Assembly (NCBI GenBank): GCA_964017825.1
Contig: CAXHMA010000001.1
Span: 83,928-147,927, forward strand
Reading direction: 5' to 3'
Origin: an uncultured Alphaproteobacteria bacterium
Lineage (GTDB): Bacteria > Pseudomonadota > Alphaproteobacteria > RF32 > CAG-239
Length of the DNA stretch: 64,000 nt
Shown: piece by piece, positions 45,929 to 50,902 of the stretch
How positions within the stretch are numbered: the first letter of the stretch is position 1
How the letters are laid out: every line of letters starts with the position of its first letter
Position numbers and translations under genes: made by a program
Notes under the pieces: model-generated
What the model saw: only the letters and a program-made list of their open reading frames with translations
What the model was told of the DNA's origin: nothing
Databases searched by the model: none

Positions 45929-46045
45929 CTTTGTTTACTCTTTCAATTTTTAATTTGCTATCGCAGGACTTATGTCTTAAAAAAGGCTATATACCAAAAT
46001 AAATAAACAGACAACCTTTATTTTCGGCTCTTGAAAGAAAACGCG

Positions 46046-47668
46046 ATGACCATTGAAACCATAACGGTATTTTTATATGTCTGGCTTTCTCTAAGCCTTG
46101 TTTTCCCGCTGTTTGCGGCGATTTTGATTAACCGTTCCCGCCGTCTCAAAAAAGAACTGGCCAAACAAAACGGCGCCAACCGTTATTATGAAGAAATGCT
46201 CTATGCGTCCAAAGACGGCTATCTGACCTTCTCGCTTTATAAAAACAAAGAATTTCAATATTGCTCGCGCCGCCTGGCAACGCTGCTTAATCTCAAAAAC
46301 GGGGAAGACAGCTCTTTCTCCGAAGTTATTTCCGTTTTTGAACGTGCCGATGCCGACAAGATAAATTCATCCCTTACCGCCTTAAAAAAAAGCGGCTCGG
46401 GCTTTGAAATCATTGCCCGCACCAAAAGCCGCAAAATCTTTGCCGTCACCGGTGTCCGCATTGATTCCGCCGATTCGGAGGTAAGCAGCAGCTGTTTATG
46501 GTTCCGCGACATCACCCGAACGACAGACTTCATTGATCGCGTTACCGAAGAGGCCTTTACCTGCCGGCAGAAACTGGAAGATTATCGGATTCTGATTGAC
46601 AATATCCCCTGCCCTGTCTGGCTGAGAAACGAAAATCTGGACATCACGCTTTTAAACCGGCACTATCTGCACCTTGTCGGACTAAAAGATTTCAAAGACG
46701 CCACCCCGGAAAACACTGTCCTGCGCGACTTAGGCAATACGACAAATCTGGCGGAGCTTGCCAAAAATGCCAAAGAGTCCAACACGTCACAAAAAAAACA
46801 AATCAATATTTTATATGACGGCGACCTGAAAAAATATGAAATCATTGAAACGCCCTATTACGACACCTCGTTGAAAACCACCCGCACCGTCGGGTCGCTG
46901 ATGGATATAACCGGTTTTGACGAAGCAAAGCGCAGCTATCAGGTACATCTTGAATCGCATCTCGATATTTTAAGCTCGCTTGATACCGCTTTTTGCATCA
47001 TAAACAACAAACACCTCTTTACATTCGGCAATGCCGCTTTCCTGAAATTATGGAACCTGCCTGATAATTTTCTTGACAACGAACCGCATTACAATCTGTT
47101 TCTGGAAAAAATACGCGAGCAAAAAACGCTGCCCGAAGTTTCGGACTTCAAAGCCTACAAAGAAGAAGAAAATAAAGCCTTTGATGCCCTGACCGAACAG
47201 CGCGAAGACCTCATGTATATTCCCGACGGCAGGACATTTCGCCGCATTCGCGCGCCGCACCCCAGCGGAACGTTAATTGCTTTTGAAGATATAACCGGAC
47301 AGCTCACCGCAGCCAGAAGACTGAGTGATTTGATTGCCGTGCAGCAGGGCATTCTGGACAATATCAGCGATTCCGTTGTTTTATTCTCACCGTCATTAAA
47401 ACTGAAATCATATAACATCGCTTTTCAAAAACTTTGGGGATTGAGCCCTTTTCAATTAGACGAAATGCCTTTCCTGCGCGAGCTTGTGGATATGCAAAAG
47501 CCGGCACTGCCCGAAATAGAAGATTGGAAATCCTTCCGCGAAGACATGTTAAAACACATCACCGCCTGCACCCCGTTTACTCTGAAACTCAAAAACAAAC
47601 AAAAAATCAATGTCACACCTGTTATTCTGCCGGACACGTCTCTGATGATTTCTTATCACAAACAATAA
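46046..47668 (+). CDS. Membrane-anchored protein with repeated PAS-like domains, no histidine-kinase catalytic domain.
   Basis: One N-terminal TM; repeated PAS-like blocks (NAAFLKLWNLP..., NIAFQKLWGLSP...); no H-box/N/G-box motifs. Confidence 0.5.
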   Translation: MTIETITVFLYVWLSLSLVFPLFAAILINRSRRLKKELAKQNGANRYYEEMLYASKDGYLTFSLYKNKEFQYCSRRLATLLNLKNGEDSSFSEVISVFERADADKINSSLTALKKSGSGFEIIARTKSRKIFAVTGVRIDSADSEVSSSCLWFRDITRTTDFIDRVTEEAFTCRQKLEDYRILIDNIPCPVWLRNENLDITLLNRHYLHLVGLKDFKDATPENTVLRDLGNTTNLAELAKNAKESNTSQKKQINILYDGDLKKYEIIETPYYDTSLKTTRTVGSLMDITGFDEAKRSYQVHLESHLDILSSLDTAFCIINNKHLFTFGNAAFLKLWNLPDNFLDNEPHYNLFLEKIREQKTLPEVSDFKAYKEEENKAFDALTEQREDLMYIPDGRTFRRIRAPHPSGTLIAFEDITGQLTAARRLSDLIAVQQGILDNISDSVVLFSPSLKLKSYNIAFQKLWGLSPFQLDEMPFLRELVDMQKPALPEIEDWKSFREDMLKHITACTPFTLKLKNKQKINVTPVILPDTSLMISYHKQ

Positions 47669-47725
47669 AAAACTTGCAGCTTAAAAAATATTTTGGCATA
47701 CTTATTTAAAACGCAGGAGAAAAAA

Positions 47726-48484
47726 ATGTCTCAAAACAGCCAAACCGATAAACACAAAGTAGTTGACTGGGAAAAAAAGTCAGGCAGCGATTCCGAACGC
47801 ATTAATAAACGAATGAAAAAGCGCAAACCCGCAGCCTGTGCCGTTCCCGATTCCTTTCCGGTAAGACCGCCGCGCGCCGTCGGACAGCCGTTGCTGCGCC
47901 TGCGCAAAAAAATAAAAGAGATTTACGAAGAAGAAGACGAAGATGAAAATGCACCTTTGTTTAATATTGAACTGTTTGAAGAAATGGATGAAAACAAACA
48001 ACAAAAAGAAGCATCCGAAACATTGCGCATCACCAAACAAATGGAATTGGCCGGAAAACTCAACCTTATCATGAATACGGCACTTGTTGCCGAACAGGCG
48101 GGACTGAACCCGAAAATGACGGCAGAAGACGCAAAACTCGCCAACACGGCAGAATATGACCTTAAAAAAATCCGCAGTAAAACGCTGAACTCAAAAGTGG
48201 AAAAACCGCTGGGTTTGAAAGGTAAACTTCCCGAACAAGACATCAGCACCGCCGTCAAAGGTATAAAAAAAGCCAAAGAAAACCTGCCGCCGGATTCTCT
48301 TGCTGATTTTCCTGCCGGTGATGCCGCAGAACTTGCCGCTTTGGACGAAGAAGACATGGCTGAATTAATCTTACGCAAATCCGGCAGAAAAGCTCCTAAA
48401 AAAAGCCTGTCGGAAATTGCCAAAGGCCTTAACAATTTAAACAGCATTGAAAACAATGAACCGGACAACAGAGAAAACGTCTGA
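47726..48484 (+). CDS. Acidic low-complexity hypothetical protein.
   Basis: AGGAG RBS before MSQNSQTD; Glu/Asp/Lys-rich. Confidence 0.45.
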   Translation: MSQNSQTDKHKVVDWEKKSGSDSERINKRMKKRKPAACAVPDSFPVRPPRAVGQPLLRLRKKIKEIYEEEDEDENAPLFNIELFEEMDENKQQKEASETLRITKQMELAGKLNLIMNTALVAEQAGLNPKMTAEDAKLANTAEYDLKKIRSKTLNSKVEKPLGLKGKLPEQDISTAVKGIKKAKENLPPDSLADFPAGDAAELAALDEEDMAELILRKSGRKAPKKSLSEIAKGLNNLNSIENNEPDNRENV

Positions 48485-48563
48485 ACCGTATAAAGCTCAT
48501 TGACACTTATAAATAATTGTGATATGCTGAATGCGTTGTAATTTGCAAAACAAAGGCCAGGCT

Positions 48564-48980
48564 ATGGAAAACCAGTATTATACTTTGATTGAAAAACAGG
48601 ATTTTTTTGAAATCATCGAAAACAAATTCGGCGAACTCGCAATTTTTATTGACGCCCGCAAAGGTGAACCTTTAAATCCCCAGCTGGAATTTGACGGTAA
48701 AGACACCGCTTTGTTAAAAAGGGATAACCGCATCGCCGTCAAAATGCAGGGAATTAATTCCGAAACCGGCGCCGTTTTGGCCGAAGCCGAGTTTGTCATG
48801 ATTGTGGAACTCAAAGGCGAAACCGTGGAAAGAACATACGGCGTTCCTGTTGATACCGTGGAGGAGTTTTCGTTCAAAGGACGCCAGACAAGGGCTGACG
48901 AACTGGAGCGGATTAAAAGCAAAGATGAAATCATCAAAGCCTTTGGCGCTGTTAAAATCTGGAAAAGCGGAGAAAAATAA
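48564..48980 (+). CDS. Hypothetical protein, first gene of EIIA-HPr-MTase operon (stop overlaps EIIA start).
   Basis: TAATG overlap with next gene; no P-loop, so not HprK. Confidence 0.45.
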   Translation: MENQYYTLIEKQDFFEIIENKFGELAIFIDARKGEPLNPQLEFDGKDTALLKRDNRIAVKMQGINSETGAVLAEAEFVMIVELKGETVERTYGVPVDTVEEFSFKGRQTRADELERIKSKDEIIKAFGAVKIWKSGEK

Positions 48981-49378
48981 TGATTGGAATAGTATTGGTC
49001 ACGCACGGTAATTTGGCTGACGAATTTCTTTCTGCCATGCAGCATGTTGTCGGACATCAGGAACAGATAGCCACAGCCTGCATCGGCCCTAATGACGATA
49101 TGAATGAACGCCGGAATGATATTTTGGCAAAAGTAGAAAAAGTTGACAGCGGCGACGGCGTTATTGTATTAACTGATATGTTCGGCGGCACCCCGTCCAA
49201 TCTGGCTATTTCCATTATGGACCGCGCCAATATTGAGGTTATTGCCGGCGTCAACCTGCCGATGCTGGTAAAATTAAATGCATTGCGCAAAGAAAAGAGC
49301 TTAAAAGAAGCGGTAACCGGTGCCAAAGAAGCCGGCATCAAATATATCACCATAGCTTCCGAATTGTTGGGAAAATAA
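48980..49378 (+). CDS. PTS EIIA component, mannose/fructose family (regulatory EIIA-Man type).
   Basis: MIGIVLVTHG with phosphorylatable His; 132 aa. Confidence 0.85.
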   Translation: MIGIVLVTHGNLADEFLSAMQHVVGHQEQIATACIGPNDDMNERRNDILAKVEKVDSGDGVIVLTDMFGGTPSNLAISIMDRANIEVIAGVNLPMLVKLNALRKEKSLKEAVTGAKEAGIKYITIASELLGK

Positions 49379-49379
49379 A

Positions 49380-49658
49380 ATGAGCGATAAAATCAGCGTA
49401 GAACTCAAAATCATAAATGAACGCGGACTGCACGCCAGAGCTGCCGCCAACTTTGTCAAAAGTATAGACGGGTTGAATGCCGATGTTGAAGTGGAACGCC
49501 TCGGTCAATGTGTCGGCGGCTGTTCCATTATGGGGTTGATGATGCTTGCCGCCGGCAAAGGAACAACGATTAAAGTTTCGGCAAGCGGCGCGGATGCCCA
49601 AAAAGCCATCAACAATATTTCTGATTTGGTAAACAATAAATTCGGCGAGGAAAAATGA
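49380..49658 (+). CDS. ptsH: Phosphocarrier protein HPr/NPr.
   Basis: GLHARAAA around His15; 92 aa. Confidence 0.85.
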   Translation: MSDKISVELKIINERGLHARAAANFVKSIDGLNADVEVERLGQCVGGCSIMGLMMLAAGKGTTIKVSASGADAQKAINNISDLVNNKFGEEK

Positions 49659-50587
49659 GCGGCACCCCTGCCCCCCGTAATAAAACCATAGTTCTGACAC
49701 CCGAAGAAACGGAACAATACGCAGCGCGTGCCGTAACGCTTACCAAAAAATCTTCATTAAAAGATATCATAGACCGCACCATTTGGCAGGATACATTCGA
49801 AGCCTTAAAATTTCTTCCCGCCAATTTCGCCGATTTGGTCGTTGTCGACCCGCCTTATAATCTGACCAAAAAATTCGGCAGCAAAGAATTCAAGTCCATG
49901 GATTGGAATGATTACAAACGCTGGATGGATAAATGGCTGGCGGAAGTGTTTATCTCTTTAAAGCCCAACGGCAGTCTGTATATCTGCTCCGATTGGAACA
50001 CATCCATCGCCGTTCCCGAAATTGCCGGCAAATATTTCCTCTTAAAAAACCGCATAACCTGGGAGCGCGAAAAAGGCAGAAGCTCCGGCAACAACTGGAA
50101 AAACTGCATTGAAGACATCTGGTTTTTTACCAAATCTCCCGAATACACGTTTAATCTGGATGCTGTCAAATTAAAGCGTCCGGTGCTCGCACCGTATAAA
50201 GACGATAACGGTACCCCGAAAGACTGGCAGGAAGATGATGAAAATGACGGTAAAAAATTCCGCCTGACAGCACCGTCAAACCTTTGGACGGATATCTCCA
50301 TTCCGTTTTGGTCAATGGCTGAAAACACATCTCATCCGACGCAAAAGCCGGAAAAACTCATTGCCAAGCTGATATTGGCTTCAAGCAATGAGGGCGACGT
50401 CGTTTTTGACCCGTTTCTCGGCTCGGGAACCACTTCCGTCACCGCGGCCAAGCTCGGACGGCACTATGTCGGCATTGAACGCGAAAAAGAATATGTAGCC
50501 TTGGCCGAAAAGAGGCTGGAAAGGGCTGCCGAAGACAAAACCATCCAAGGCTACGAAGACGGCGTTTTCAAACTCCGCCATGCTTAA
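49655..50587 (+). CDS. Beta-class N6-adenine DNA methyltransferase, CcrM-like orphan (no adjacent endonuclease).
   Basis: Motif IV DPPYN near N-terminus, motif I FDPFLGSGTT near C-terminus; ATGA overlap with HPr stop. Confidence 0.8.
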   Translation: MSGTPAPRNKTIVLTPEETEQYAARAVTLTKKSSLKDIIDRTIWQDTFEALKFLPANFADLVVVDPPYNLTKKFGSKEFKSMDWNDYKRWMDKWLAEVFISLKPNGSLYICSDWNTSIAVPEIAGKYFLLKNRITWEREKGRSSGNNWKNCIEDIWFFTKSPEYTFNLDAVKLKRPVLAPYKDDNGTPKDWQEDDENDGKKFRLTAPSNLWTDISIPFWSMAENTSHPTQKPEKLIAKLILASSNEGDVVFDPFLGSGTTSVTAAKLGRHYVGIEREKEYVALAEKRLERAAEDKTIQGYEDGVFKLRHA

Positions 50588-50645: not shown

Positions 50646-50866
50646 TTGCAAAAATAGATAATTCGTTATATAAACCATCTAAGAAGCTGCTAATAAACAG
50701 GTCCGGGGCGTCAGAAACCCTGTAAGCAATCGTTTCCATAACGAAGGACATCGCGTTTTGAGGAGTTAAAGGACGGACGTCGGCGAATAAGAGCTTGCTC
50801 AAATAAGCCGAGCCGTTGATTGCTTACGGTTTCTGAACGTCCGCCCGCCTTTTCGTGCGGGCTTTT
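50646..50866 (+). ncRNA. Candidate ~185-nt sRNA with own promoter (TTGCAA-17-TATAAA), ~25-bp imperfect closing helix and intrinsic terminator; no ATG inside.
   Basis: 5' arm GGGGCGTCAGAAACCCTGTAAGCAATC pairs with 3' arm GATTGCTTACGGTTTCTGAACGTCCGCCC; terminator GCCCGCCTTTTCGTGCGGGC+TTTTT. Confidence 0.45.
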
Positions 50867-50902
50867 TCATTTTCTGCTTGAAACATCTCAAAAATCTAAA
50901 AT

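Follow-up and report, generated by a model that had tools for sequence, protein, structure and literature searches.

How a DNA methylase came to be encoded directly behind the phosphocarrier gene of a regulatory PTS, and what that arrangement does, are the questions raised by one locus in the window analysed here, which is the whole 64,000-nucleotide stretch of DNA from an uncultured alphaproteobacterium. Gene-regulating solitary DNA methylases are few (Dam, CcrM, CamA and M.BceJIV), and each is informative. A first-pass annotation had read the locus as a tightly chained unit comprising a protein without P-loop in the HprK slot, a regulatory PTS pair, and a ‘CcrM-like’ methylase that has no restriction partner. 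The results below uphold the tight unit, the missing restriction partner and the non-HprK slot protein, but replace the ‘CcrM-like’ assignment. A search of the literature on the gut clade RF32 yielded nothing useful.

Structure of the operon

Direct reading of open reading frames and junctions identifies a four-gene operon on the + strand (48564–50587), in the order X139, EIIA(Man), HPr, methylase. The first gene (48564–48980, + strand, read directly as an open reading frame) encodes X139 (138 aa; function unknown); the second (48980–49378, + strand) encodes a 132-aa EIIA-Man of the ManX/PtsM type (PF03610, E = 3.7e-32); the third (49380–49658, + strand) encodes a 92-aa HPr/NPr phosphocarrier (PF00381, E = 3.7e-25; TIGR01003); and the fourth (49655–50587, + strand) encodes a 310-aa solitary beta-class DPPY DNA methylase (PF01555, E = 2.9e-47). 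X139 and EIIA are joined by TAATG, in which one base, at 48980, is common to stop and start; a 1-nt spacer (A at 49379) separates the EIIA stop from the HPr ATG; and HPr and methylase overlap by ATGA at 49655–49658, with a GAGGA Shine-Dalgarno sequence for the methylase lying within the 3' end of the HPr gene. The chain of TAATG, 1-nt and ATGA junctions described in the first-pass annotation is borne out by this direct reading, and the recurrence of the gene order in 83/83 informative related loci is more than chance. The spacing suggests that the four genes are co-transcribed and translationally coupled.

The sole strong + strand promoter-like site upstream, found by consensus scan (10/12 matches), is a putative sigma-70-type promoter at 48500–48528 (+ strand), with the form TTGACA-17 nt-TATGCT and an upstream TG. 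In 14 relatives the block ATTGACACTT.TAAA...TG.TAT changes little or not at all, while the DNA around it varies. This promoter is likely to be the start of the four-gene operon. A check for a separate promoter or terminator between HPr and methylase found that the sole conserved promoter precedes the first gene and that the + strand has no credible terminator before 50843, hence none between HPr and methylase; an internal promoter may lie inside the HPr or EIIA coding sequence. Downstream of the operon, the first strong intrinsic terminator is at 50843–50862, followed by a T run, and is probably the end of the operon transcript.

The terminator scan, together with folding and conservation, also revealed a conserved structured RNA candidate at 50771–50867 (+ strand), with a match to sRNA-Xcc1 of Rfam that is below threshold (34.6 bits, E = 2.6e-4), a folding z-score of -3.7 and compensatory changes in 5/22 predicted pairs. 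The candidate is kept in relatives at the same place and also at other positions, and could be a small RNA in its own right. At gathering thresholds Rfam gave no match anywhere in the 64-kb window, nor did a tRNA scan.

Conservation of the cassette

Related loci were gathered via the methylase, such that PTS cassettes of the same type without methylase would be missed; 83 of these loci, having enough upstream DNA and complete genes, are informative. The cassette is complete, and in the same order, in 83/83 informative loci, and the gap between HPr and methylase is 12 nt or less in 82/83 (-4 in 32, -1 in 12), the exception being one locus (L027) with a gap of 164 nt. The genes flanking the cassette vary by subclade (PAS/FtsH in one, ABC transporter/LolA in another), the next gene 3' of the cassette being ftsH or lolA, and the cassette remains intact. 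In species-representative genomes the clade-specific methylase patterns have at least 577 matching stretches. By estimate, the species of uncultured gut Alphaproteobacteria in which the methylase is fixed number several hundred. Pairwise identities of the methylase correlate with those of EIIA (r = 0.74) and HPr (r = 0.77) nearly as EIIA and HPr correlate with each other (0.80), and mean pairwise identities across the clade are 72% for X139, 70% for the methylase and 65% for HPr. Strict linkage over an estimated several hundred species exceeds usual operon hitch-hiking, which makes a direct functional tie conceivable.

Family and ancestry of the methylase

The methylase scores 161.9 bits with PF01555 (N6_N4_Mtase; gathering threshold 26.7) and has the beta-class motif order, with DPPY (residues 65–68) N-terminal to the SAM-binding DPFLGSGTT (residues 252–260). 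DPPY and DPFxGSGTT are invariant across the family, and the predicted product is N6-methyladenine in DNA. The best PADLOC model is MTase_II (PDLC03371; 224 bits, model positions 6–258 of 260), and the orphan-methylase model gives 116 bits. The protein belongs with the methylases of Type II restriction-modification (R-M) systems on two grounds: the full-length match, and relatives that have a Type II restriction enzyme as partner. The locus itself does not qualify as a functional R-M system: no restriction gene adjoins the methylase, either in the window or in the related loci (0/88), as the first-pass annotation had stated for this locus. Neither the window nor the ±8-kb flanks of the 88 loci contain a second beta-class methylase.

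In a neighbour-joining tree the PTS-linked methylases are monophyletic, with an R-M-containing clade as sister. Methylases of the sister clade come from many gut bacteria (Bacteroidales, Clostridia and others), are ~54% identical to the window methylase (range 50–60%), and have the same length and the same N-terminal PRNKT motif. Of the 63 sister loci with sufficient sequence downstream, 13 encode a Type II restriction enzyme directly after the methylase (PADLOC REase_II, PDLC03461, E = 3.9e-96); this enzyme family is found in Bacteroidales, Clostridia and Synergistales. The two clades thus differ in context: sister loci have a restriction gene in some cases and never a PTS neighbour (0/81 within 5 kb), whereas loci of the window clade have no restriction gene and carry the methylase as a member of a PTS operon. 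The source names of the sister-clade restriction enzyme are all ‘hypothetical protein’, so there is no specificity to borrow. A phage origin was rejected because the top ‘phage’ match, MT836501.1, is bacterial chromosomal DNA with sdaA, sir2, kdsB, queA and lgt.

The reading that we favour, with a probability of roughly 0.7, is that an R-M-derived solitary methylase has been fixed behind HPr, is inherited vertically and is coupled to the PTS operon by expression. The ancestral methylase would have come from a Type II R-M family widespread in gut bacteria; the restriction partner would have been lost, or never present, in the ancestor of a large uncultured clade of gut and rumen Alphaproteobacteria; and the methylase would have become fixed immediately 3' of HPr and been inherited vertically with the PTS genes ever since. 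Methylase and HPr would be made from one mRNA, partly by translational coupling, so that the methylase level would follow the level of the PTS operon, and the methylase would act as a solitary genome-wide enzyme with a housekeeping or epigenetic role. Co-expression is the only link between PTS and methylation that we can infer from sequence; the methylase might also have a regulatory role and depend on the phosphorylation state of the PTS.

The PTS pair and the protein in the HprK slot

The alphaproteobacterial regulatory PTS runs from EI-Ntr through NPr to EIIA-Man/EIIA-Ntr without a permease; its hallmarks in a genome are ptsP and ptsN together with a lack of EIIBC permeases. The EIIA of the window belongs to the mannose family (PF03610, 111.3 bits), and its His9 (in VTHG) and DMFGGTP motif are invariant in 79/79 relatives; the phosphocarrier belongs to the HPr/NPr family (PF00381, 88.2 bits), and its His18 and Ser49, whose numbering matches that of Caulobacter HPr (PMC4551980), are likewise invariant in 79/79 relatives. 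The phosphorylation sites of EIIA and HPr are thus intact, and the two are probably the regulatory PTS pair ancestral to Alphaproteobacteria.

The classical alphaproteobacterial operon has the order hprK-ptsM(EIIA-Man)-ptsO(NPr) (PMC2937029), and in Brucella, Sinorhizobium and Caulobacter it lies downstream of bvrRS/chvIG and is followed by sahH. The operon in the window shares with the classical operon the order of EIIA-Man before HPr, His18 and Ser49 as in Caulobacter HPr, and one small gene directly upstream. The neighbours differ: X139 stands in place of the P-loop kinase HprK; the upstream sensor, in part of the clade only, is a PAS protein that lacks a kinase domain, instead of bvrRS/chvIG; and the downstream gene encodes a DNA methylase that depends on SAM, where the classical operon has SAH hydrolase.

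X139 comprises a beta-rich N-terminal domain of ~95 aa (residues ~8–102) and a helical tail of ~35 aa. It lacks a Walker A motif and matches nothing in Pfam or NCBIfam, which agrees with the earlier description of a hypothetical protein without P-loop in the HprK slot, apart from the length, since the 139 residues given there included the stop codon. HprK/P is characterized by the Hpr_kinase_C fold together with a P-loop of Walker A type (GxSGxGKS), and X139 has neither; a degenerate HprK was rejected on the basis of sequence and fold. The ~95-aa domain has no family model and no solved homologue, and elsewhere it is fused to TIR domains. The AF2 model of X139 had a pLDDT of 43 with a shallow alignment, which is unusable, and of 86 with a deeper alignment. 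Stand-alone X139-like proteins have a 91-aa partner that we considered as HPr-like and rejected; it is small, with a Gly/Ala-rich hydrophobic tail. An hprK gene was sought elsewhere by its P-loop motif: there is no HprK-type G.SG.GKS motif in the 64-kb window, and no HprK P-loop in the ±8-kb flanks of 88 loci.

The intactness of the PTS pair and the constancy of X139 bear on a closer coupling than the shared mRNA of the favoured reading, namely a post-translational one, in which HPr or EIIA, in a phosphorylation-dependent manner and possibly with X139 as adaptor instead of HprK, would bind or phosphorylate the methylase so that its activity reports carbon/nitrogen state. Such a coupling would fit the clade-wide linkage of the four genes despite rearranged flanks, the conservation of X139 to the same degree as the enzymes (72% vs 70% for the methylase), the invariant phosphorylation sites of HPr, and the regulation of partner proteins by HPr through binding or phosphorylation (discussed in PMC4551980). 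However, the cassette proteins include no fusion and share no domain, the family-specific PRNKT motif at the N terminus of the methylase occurs also in the PTS-free sister clade, and no PTS-specific feature of the methylase was found. We consider this closer coupling unlikely.

Comparison of the methylase with CcrM and other solitary methylases

The window methylase and CcrM (Caulobacter crescentus; 6PBD, NF050803) are both beta-class, DPPY-containing, alphaproteobacterial and solitary, and the first-pass annotation had called the methylase CcrM-like. Sequence comparison contradicts that assignment. With the CcrM model of NCBIfam, NF050803, the methylase scores 116.5 bits, in two stretches, against an equivalog cutoff of 830. 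With the CcrM structure, 6PBD, it scores 90 bits in two fragments (residues 17–168 and 195–261 of 366), a weaker match than either M.BceJIV (122 bits) or M.MboIIA (103 bits). Identity with CcrM in the N-terminal half is 26%. The methylase ends ~20 residues past the last stretch shared with CcrM; it lacks the region of ~80–100 residues that follows the methylase core in CcrM, whose C-terminal ~100 residues have no counterpart, and at its N terminus it carries a 45-aa extension of its own, in which APRNKT is conserved.

The window methylase is most closely related to R-M methylases, YhdJ and M.BceJIV. E. coli YhdJ is, like the window methylase, a solitary beta-class adenine methylase, and its model, PRK11524, is the best NCBIfam match (141.8 bits over residues 40–293); the score is below the equivalog cutoff of 292, and the window methylase is therefore not an orthologue. 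M.BceJIV of Burkholderia cenocepacia (8URK) is the closest solved structure by sequence (residues 52–291) and shares with the window methylase a beta-class DPPY architecture of ~280–310 aa, an N-terminal extension, solitary occurrence, conservation in its clade and location in a metabolic operon. The dam gene also sits in a housekeeping operon, parallel to M.BceJIV. The resemblance has limits: identity is ~34%, the operon is trp rather than PTS, and engagement of two DNA duplexes is a property of M.BceJIV. M.BceJIV is a solitary GTWWAC N6-adenine methylase within the trp operon (PMC11380664).

These comparisons bear on the proposal that the methylase is the CcrM equivalent of the clade, a GANTC-specific cell-cycle enzyme moved into the npr operon such that HPr~P, and hence nutrition, and methylation are controlled together. 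The class, the solitary occurrence and the clade-wide conservation are as that proposal would have it. So is the genetics of Caulobacter, where loss of ccrM is suppressed by mutations in hprK and ptsP, via HPr phosphorylation acting on ftsZ transcription (PMC4551980), from which it follows that a genetic link between methylation and PTS exists in Alphaproteobacteria. GANTC is mildly under-represented in coding sequence of the clade (O/E 0.79) and not in intergenic sequence (1.04), whereas the values for sister-clade loci, 0.77 and 0.78, do not differ. However, this signal is weak, AT-rich motifs and CTAG have coding/intergenic ratios similar to that of GANTC, and a separate ccrM elsewhere could cause it. 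Together with the low CcrM score, the split alignment, the unmatched C-terminal region and relatives that lie elsewhere, this leaves the CcrM-equivalent proposal quite unlikely. In k-mer statistics GATC falls to an O/E of 0.30 in the clade, a strong depletion, and TTTAAA is depleted in the 13 restriction-enzyme-linked sister loci (O/E 0.34, from small counts); k-mer depletion gave no clear target-sequence candidate for the methylase.

The misfit to CcrM, the R-M-type best matches and the sister clade bearing restriction enzymes together point to a beta-class DPPY methylase that has been domesticated, now stands alone and is fixed as the last gene of the regulatory PTS operon. The clustering with R-M-derived enzymes, in a tree whose sister clade includes pairs of methylase and Type II restriction enzyme, removes the earlier CcrM interpretation. 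We conclude from sequence comparison that the methylase descends from R-M enzymes, not from CcrM.

Significance of the linkage

It is most unlikely that the linkage is without functional meaning, a leftover R-M methylase having been inserted once beside HPr and hitch-hiking in compact genomes: the R-M ancestry, the commonness of operons of unrelated genes in small genomes and the occurrence of other solitary methylases in unrelated operons would suit that account, but the junction has stayed at 12 nt or less in all but one of the informative loci although both flanks are rearranged, and invariant catalytic motifs with a mean identity of 70%, where HPr averages 65%, indicate that an active enzyme is being maintained by strong purifying selection.

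The favoured reading, of an R-M-derived methylase coupled to the PTS operon by expression, could be extended to a rebuilt PTS module, a speculation that we regard as improbable. HprK would have been replaced by the new-fold X139, whose domain otherwise occurs in TIR-fused or mobile-element modules, and an R-M methylase would have been recruited behind HPr; phosphorylation of HPr and EIIA, read via X139, would set genome methylation, and the module might assume the role in which CcrM and HprK are genetically joined in Caulobacter.

The analysis corrects a tempting mis-annotation of the methylase as CcrM, flags X139 as an uncharacterised domain occupying the place of HprK, and illustrates how a restriction-modification methylase may turn into a housekeeping gene. 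In abundant uncultured gut Alphaproteobacteria, a DNA methylase sits within an operon for proteins that report carbon and nitrogen status, and the cassette offers a specific candidate, open to experimental test, for epigenetic control tied to nutrients in a gut lineage.

A probable four-gene operon joins a regulatory PTS pair to a DNA methyltransferase

The cassette comprises four plus-strand genes at 48564-50587: X139, a 138-aa ORF read from the sequence (48564-48980; the name counts the stop codon); EIIA-Man (48980-49378; PF03610); HPr (49380-49658; PF00381); and a 310-aa DPPY methyltransferase (49655-50587; PF01555), the three Pfam assignments being unambiguous. The junctions are, in order, a TAATG overlap, a 1-nt gap separating HPr from EIIA, and, ahead of the methylase, an ATGA overlap; Shine-Dalgarno-like sequences precede the starts (e.g., GAGGA within the HPr 3' end, before the methylase ATG). 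A promoter scan identified a promoter-like site, TTGACA-17-TATGCT with TG upstream, at 48500-48528, and a terminator scan placed the first convincing terminator downstream of the operon at 50843-50862 (+). The chain of ORFs is as the first-pass annotation had described it, and, with no terminator inside the operon and a single conserved promoter upstream, its reading of the genes as one unit stands.

Two plus-strand genes precede the cassette: one for a membrane protein of 545 aa (46031-47668), which has two distinct PAS-type matches in Pfam but no histidine-kinase domain by Pfam or NCBIfam, and, 3' of it and adjoining the cassette, one for a K/E-rich protein of 263 aa (47693-48484) that neither database assigns to a family. 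This pair is kept beside the cassette in about half of the clade of PTS-linked methylases, where classical Alphaproteobacteria have chvG/bvrS. Downstream of the cassette lies a conserved structured RNA candidate of ~90 nt (50771-50867, +) that ends in a strong intrinsic terminator, with copies at relatives' loci L034:13282-13387, L036:16783-16865 (-), and L080:10511-10592. Close relatives carry the candidate 3' of the methylase at 83-88% conservation, and more distant relatives have it elsewhere in the genome; its folding z-score is -3.7, compensatory changes occur in 5/22 predicted pairs, and its Rfam match, to sRNA-Xcc1, is sub-threshold (34.6 bits, E=2.6e-4).

The four genes are conserved as a unit

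Methylase homologues of 305-312 aa number in the thousands, and a scan of species-representative genomes with two clade-specific peptide patterns matches at least 577 stretches. The best 80 of these matches, with identities of 63-90%, mostly carry Alphaproteobacteria-type labels and belong to MAGs of uncultured gut or rumen organisms; the labels of a few bins are instead Bacteroidaceae, Lachnospiraceae, or Eubacteriales. At all 83 loci having complete genes and enough upstream DNA, the order X139-EIIA-HPr-methylase is intact. The HPr-methylase gap at these loci is -4 in 32, -1 in 12, 1-12 nt in 38, and 164 nt in one (L027:7851-8001); the methylase match at that one locus begins at residue 8, and the long spacer may reflect an insertion, the use of another start, or faulty assembly.

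What flanks the cassette varies by subclade: one has the PAS and K/E-rich proteins upstream and ftsH downstream, and another has an ABC transporter 5' of the cassette and lolA 3' of it. The four genes thus move together as a block. Across 14 relatives the promoter block is unchanged or almost so, amid variable intergenic DNA. Between pairs of loci, methylase identity correlates with EIIA identity (r=0.74) and with HPr identity (r=0.77), much as the EIIA and HPr values do with each other (0.80), which argues for vertical co-inheritance. Invariant residues include HPr His18 and Ser49, EIIA His9, and the methylase motifs DPPY and DPFxGSGTT.

X139 occupies the HprK position

In Brucella the gene order is bvrR-bvrS-hprK-ptsM-ptsO-sahH (PMC2937029), and Caulobacter HPr carries His18 and Ser49 (PMC4551980), at the same positions as the HPr encoded in the window. 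We therefore conclude that EIIA-HPr is the ancestral regulatory PTS pair. The position of HprK in the Brucella order is held by X139, which is unrelated to HprK, has no match in Pfam, NCBIfam, or PADLOC, and, as was noted at first reading, lacks a P-loop (no Walker A motif); no HprK-type P-loop was detected within the 64-kb window.

In a full HMMER search against 1.8 billion representatives, X139 residues ~8-102 emerge as a ~95-aa domain, which is also found in free-standing proteins of ~100 aa, on the C-terminal side of TIR_2 domains, and within a STAND-NTPase/TPR protein. For the family (X139 itself; homologous proteins P0257, P0260, P0267, P0270, and P0272; and L170:4001-4584) there is neither a Pfam model nor a solved structural neighbour. 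Beside an integrase, one of the stand-alone homologues forms a pair with a protein of 91 aa whose tail is hydrophobic and Gly/Ala-rich, and one TIR fusion is located among HTH-XRE genes. Relatives of both outer cassette genes are thus found in mobile or conflict-system settings.

The methylase is a domesticated R-M enzyme

The first-pass annotation had called the methylase a CcrM-like orphan. The absence of a restriction partner is borne out, no restriction enzyme homologue being found at any window-clade locus searched. The CcrM label is not: the methylase scores 116.5 bits against the curated CcrM model (cutoff 830), aligns with CcrM 6PBD in two pieces at 90 bits (vs. 122 for M.BceJIV 8URK and 103 for M.MboIIA), is 26% identical to CcrM over its N-terminal half, and has a sister group that contains R-M enzymes. 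It ends ~20 residues past the last CcrM-shared stretch, so that, in the 6PBD alignment, the last ~100 of the 366 CcrM residues have no counterpart; what the methylase has instead is an extension of 45 aa at its N-terminus, in which the motif APRNKT is invariant. We therefore reject CcrM orthology. The top NCBIfam model is YhdJ (PRK11524), under its cutoff, and in PADLOC a Type II R-M methylase model, matched over its full length, scores highest (224 bits, vs. 116 for the orphan-methylase model). In beta-class enzymes DPPY goes with N6-adenine rather than N4-cytosine chemistry, and the motif points to the same predicted chemistry here.

A 55%-identical homologue lies in a 10-kb record labelled 'UNVERIFIED: Bacteriophage sp.' (L089; GenBank MT836501.1). 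The genes of this record (sdaA, the methylase homologue, sir2, kdsB, queA, a GGDEF protein, and lgt) are exclusively bacterial chromosomal ones, and the record appears to be misclassified as phage. A metagenome scan seeded with this homologue yielded the 81 loci of the sister clade, which span 33% to 63% GC and heterogeneous genomic contexts, with PTS genes within 5 kb at none (0/81). Enough downstream DNA is available at 63 sister loci, and at 13 of these the methylase is followed directly by a gene for a Type II restriction enzyme (PADLOC REase_II, E=3.9e-96); Bacteroidales, Clostridia, Oscillospiraceae, and Synergistales carry homologues of this enzyme. When a neighbour-joining tree is rooted on M.MboIIA, the 83 PTS-linked methylases are monophyletic, and restriction-enzyme-linked and solitary methylases are interspersed in their sister group. 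The PADLOC match, the R-M-containing sister group, and the lack of a restriction gene in the window clade thus place the enzyme in a mobile family of Type II R-M methylases, of which it is a domesticated member. At one sister-clade locus, a 155-aa gene directly 5' of the methylase-restriction enzyme pair (L162:3370-3837, +) has a hit to PDC-M11B, a candidate defence family of PADLOC (E=3e-14); genes of this type also occur at two further sister-clade loci and may be a third component of the sister-clade R-M module.

GATC is strongly depleted in the window (O/E 0.19) and over 1.2 Mb from ~80 species of the clade (loci L009-L088; O/E 0.30), equally in coding and intergenic DNA, and is not depleted in sister-clade loci (O/E 0.98). 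The pattern suggests that the lineage has long been under restriction directed at GATC or is constrained in a way related to methylation. GANTC in the clade is mildly depleted in coding DNA (O/E 0.79 vs. 1.04 intergenic), and among palindromes TTTAAA is depleted most at the 13 loci with a linked restriction enzyme, where counts are small. None of these statistics is diagnostic of the methylase target.

Relation of the methylase to the PTS

On the strength of one conserved promoter, the lack of an internal terminator, overlapping or near-overlapping start and stop codons, and retention through flank rearrangement, we propose that the methylase is co-transcribed with HPr; it would in part also be translationally coupled to it, and would then methylate DNA adenine as a solitary enzyme. 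The sequence supports such coupling of methylase expression to the PTS genes. In E. coli, dam lies in an aroK-aroB-damX-dam operon, a parallel to a methylase in a PTS operon. M.BceJIV, a solitary methylase encoded in the trp operon (PMC11380664), provides another.

A direct biochemical link, from PTS phosphorylation to methylation, is possible but unsupported: the family-specific N-terminal motif of the methylase is common to sister enzymes without PTS neighbours. What keeps this reading alive is a documented genetic link between adenine methylation and the same PTS branch in Caulobacter, where loss of ccrM is suppressed by hprK and ptsP mutations, via HPr phosphorylation and ftsZ transcription (PMC4551980).

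A solitary R-M-derived methylase embedded in a housekeeping operon is of a known kind, and full-text literature searches returned no description of a DNA methylase in a PTS operon. New here are the specific clade-wide joining of the methylase to a regulatory PTS operon, a domain without family model or solved homologue in place of HprK, and the breadth of conservation of the cassette.
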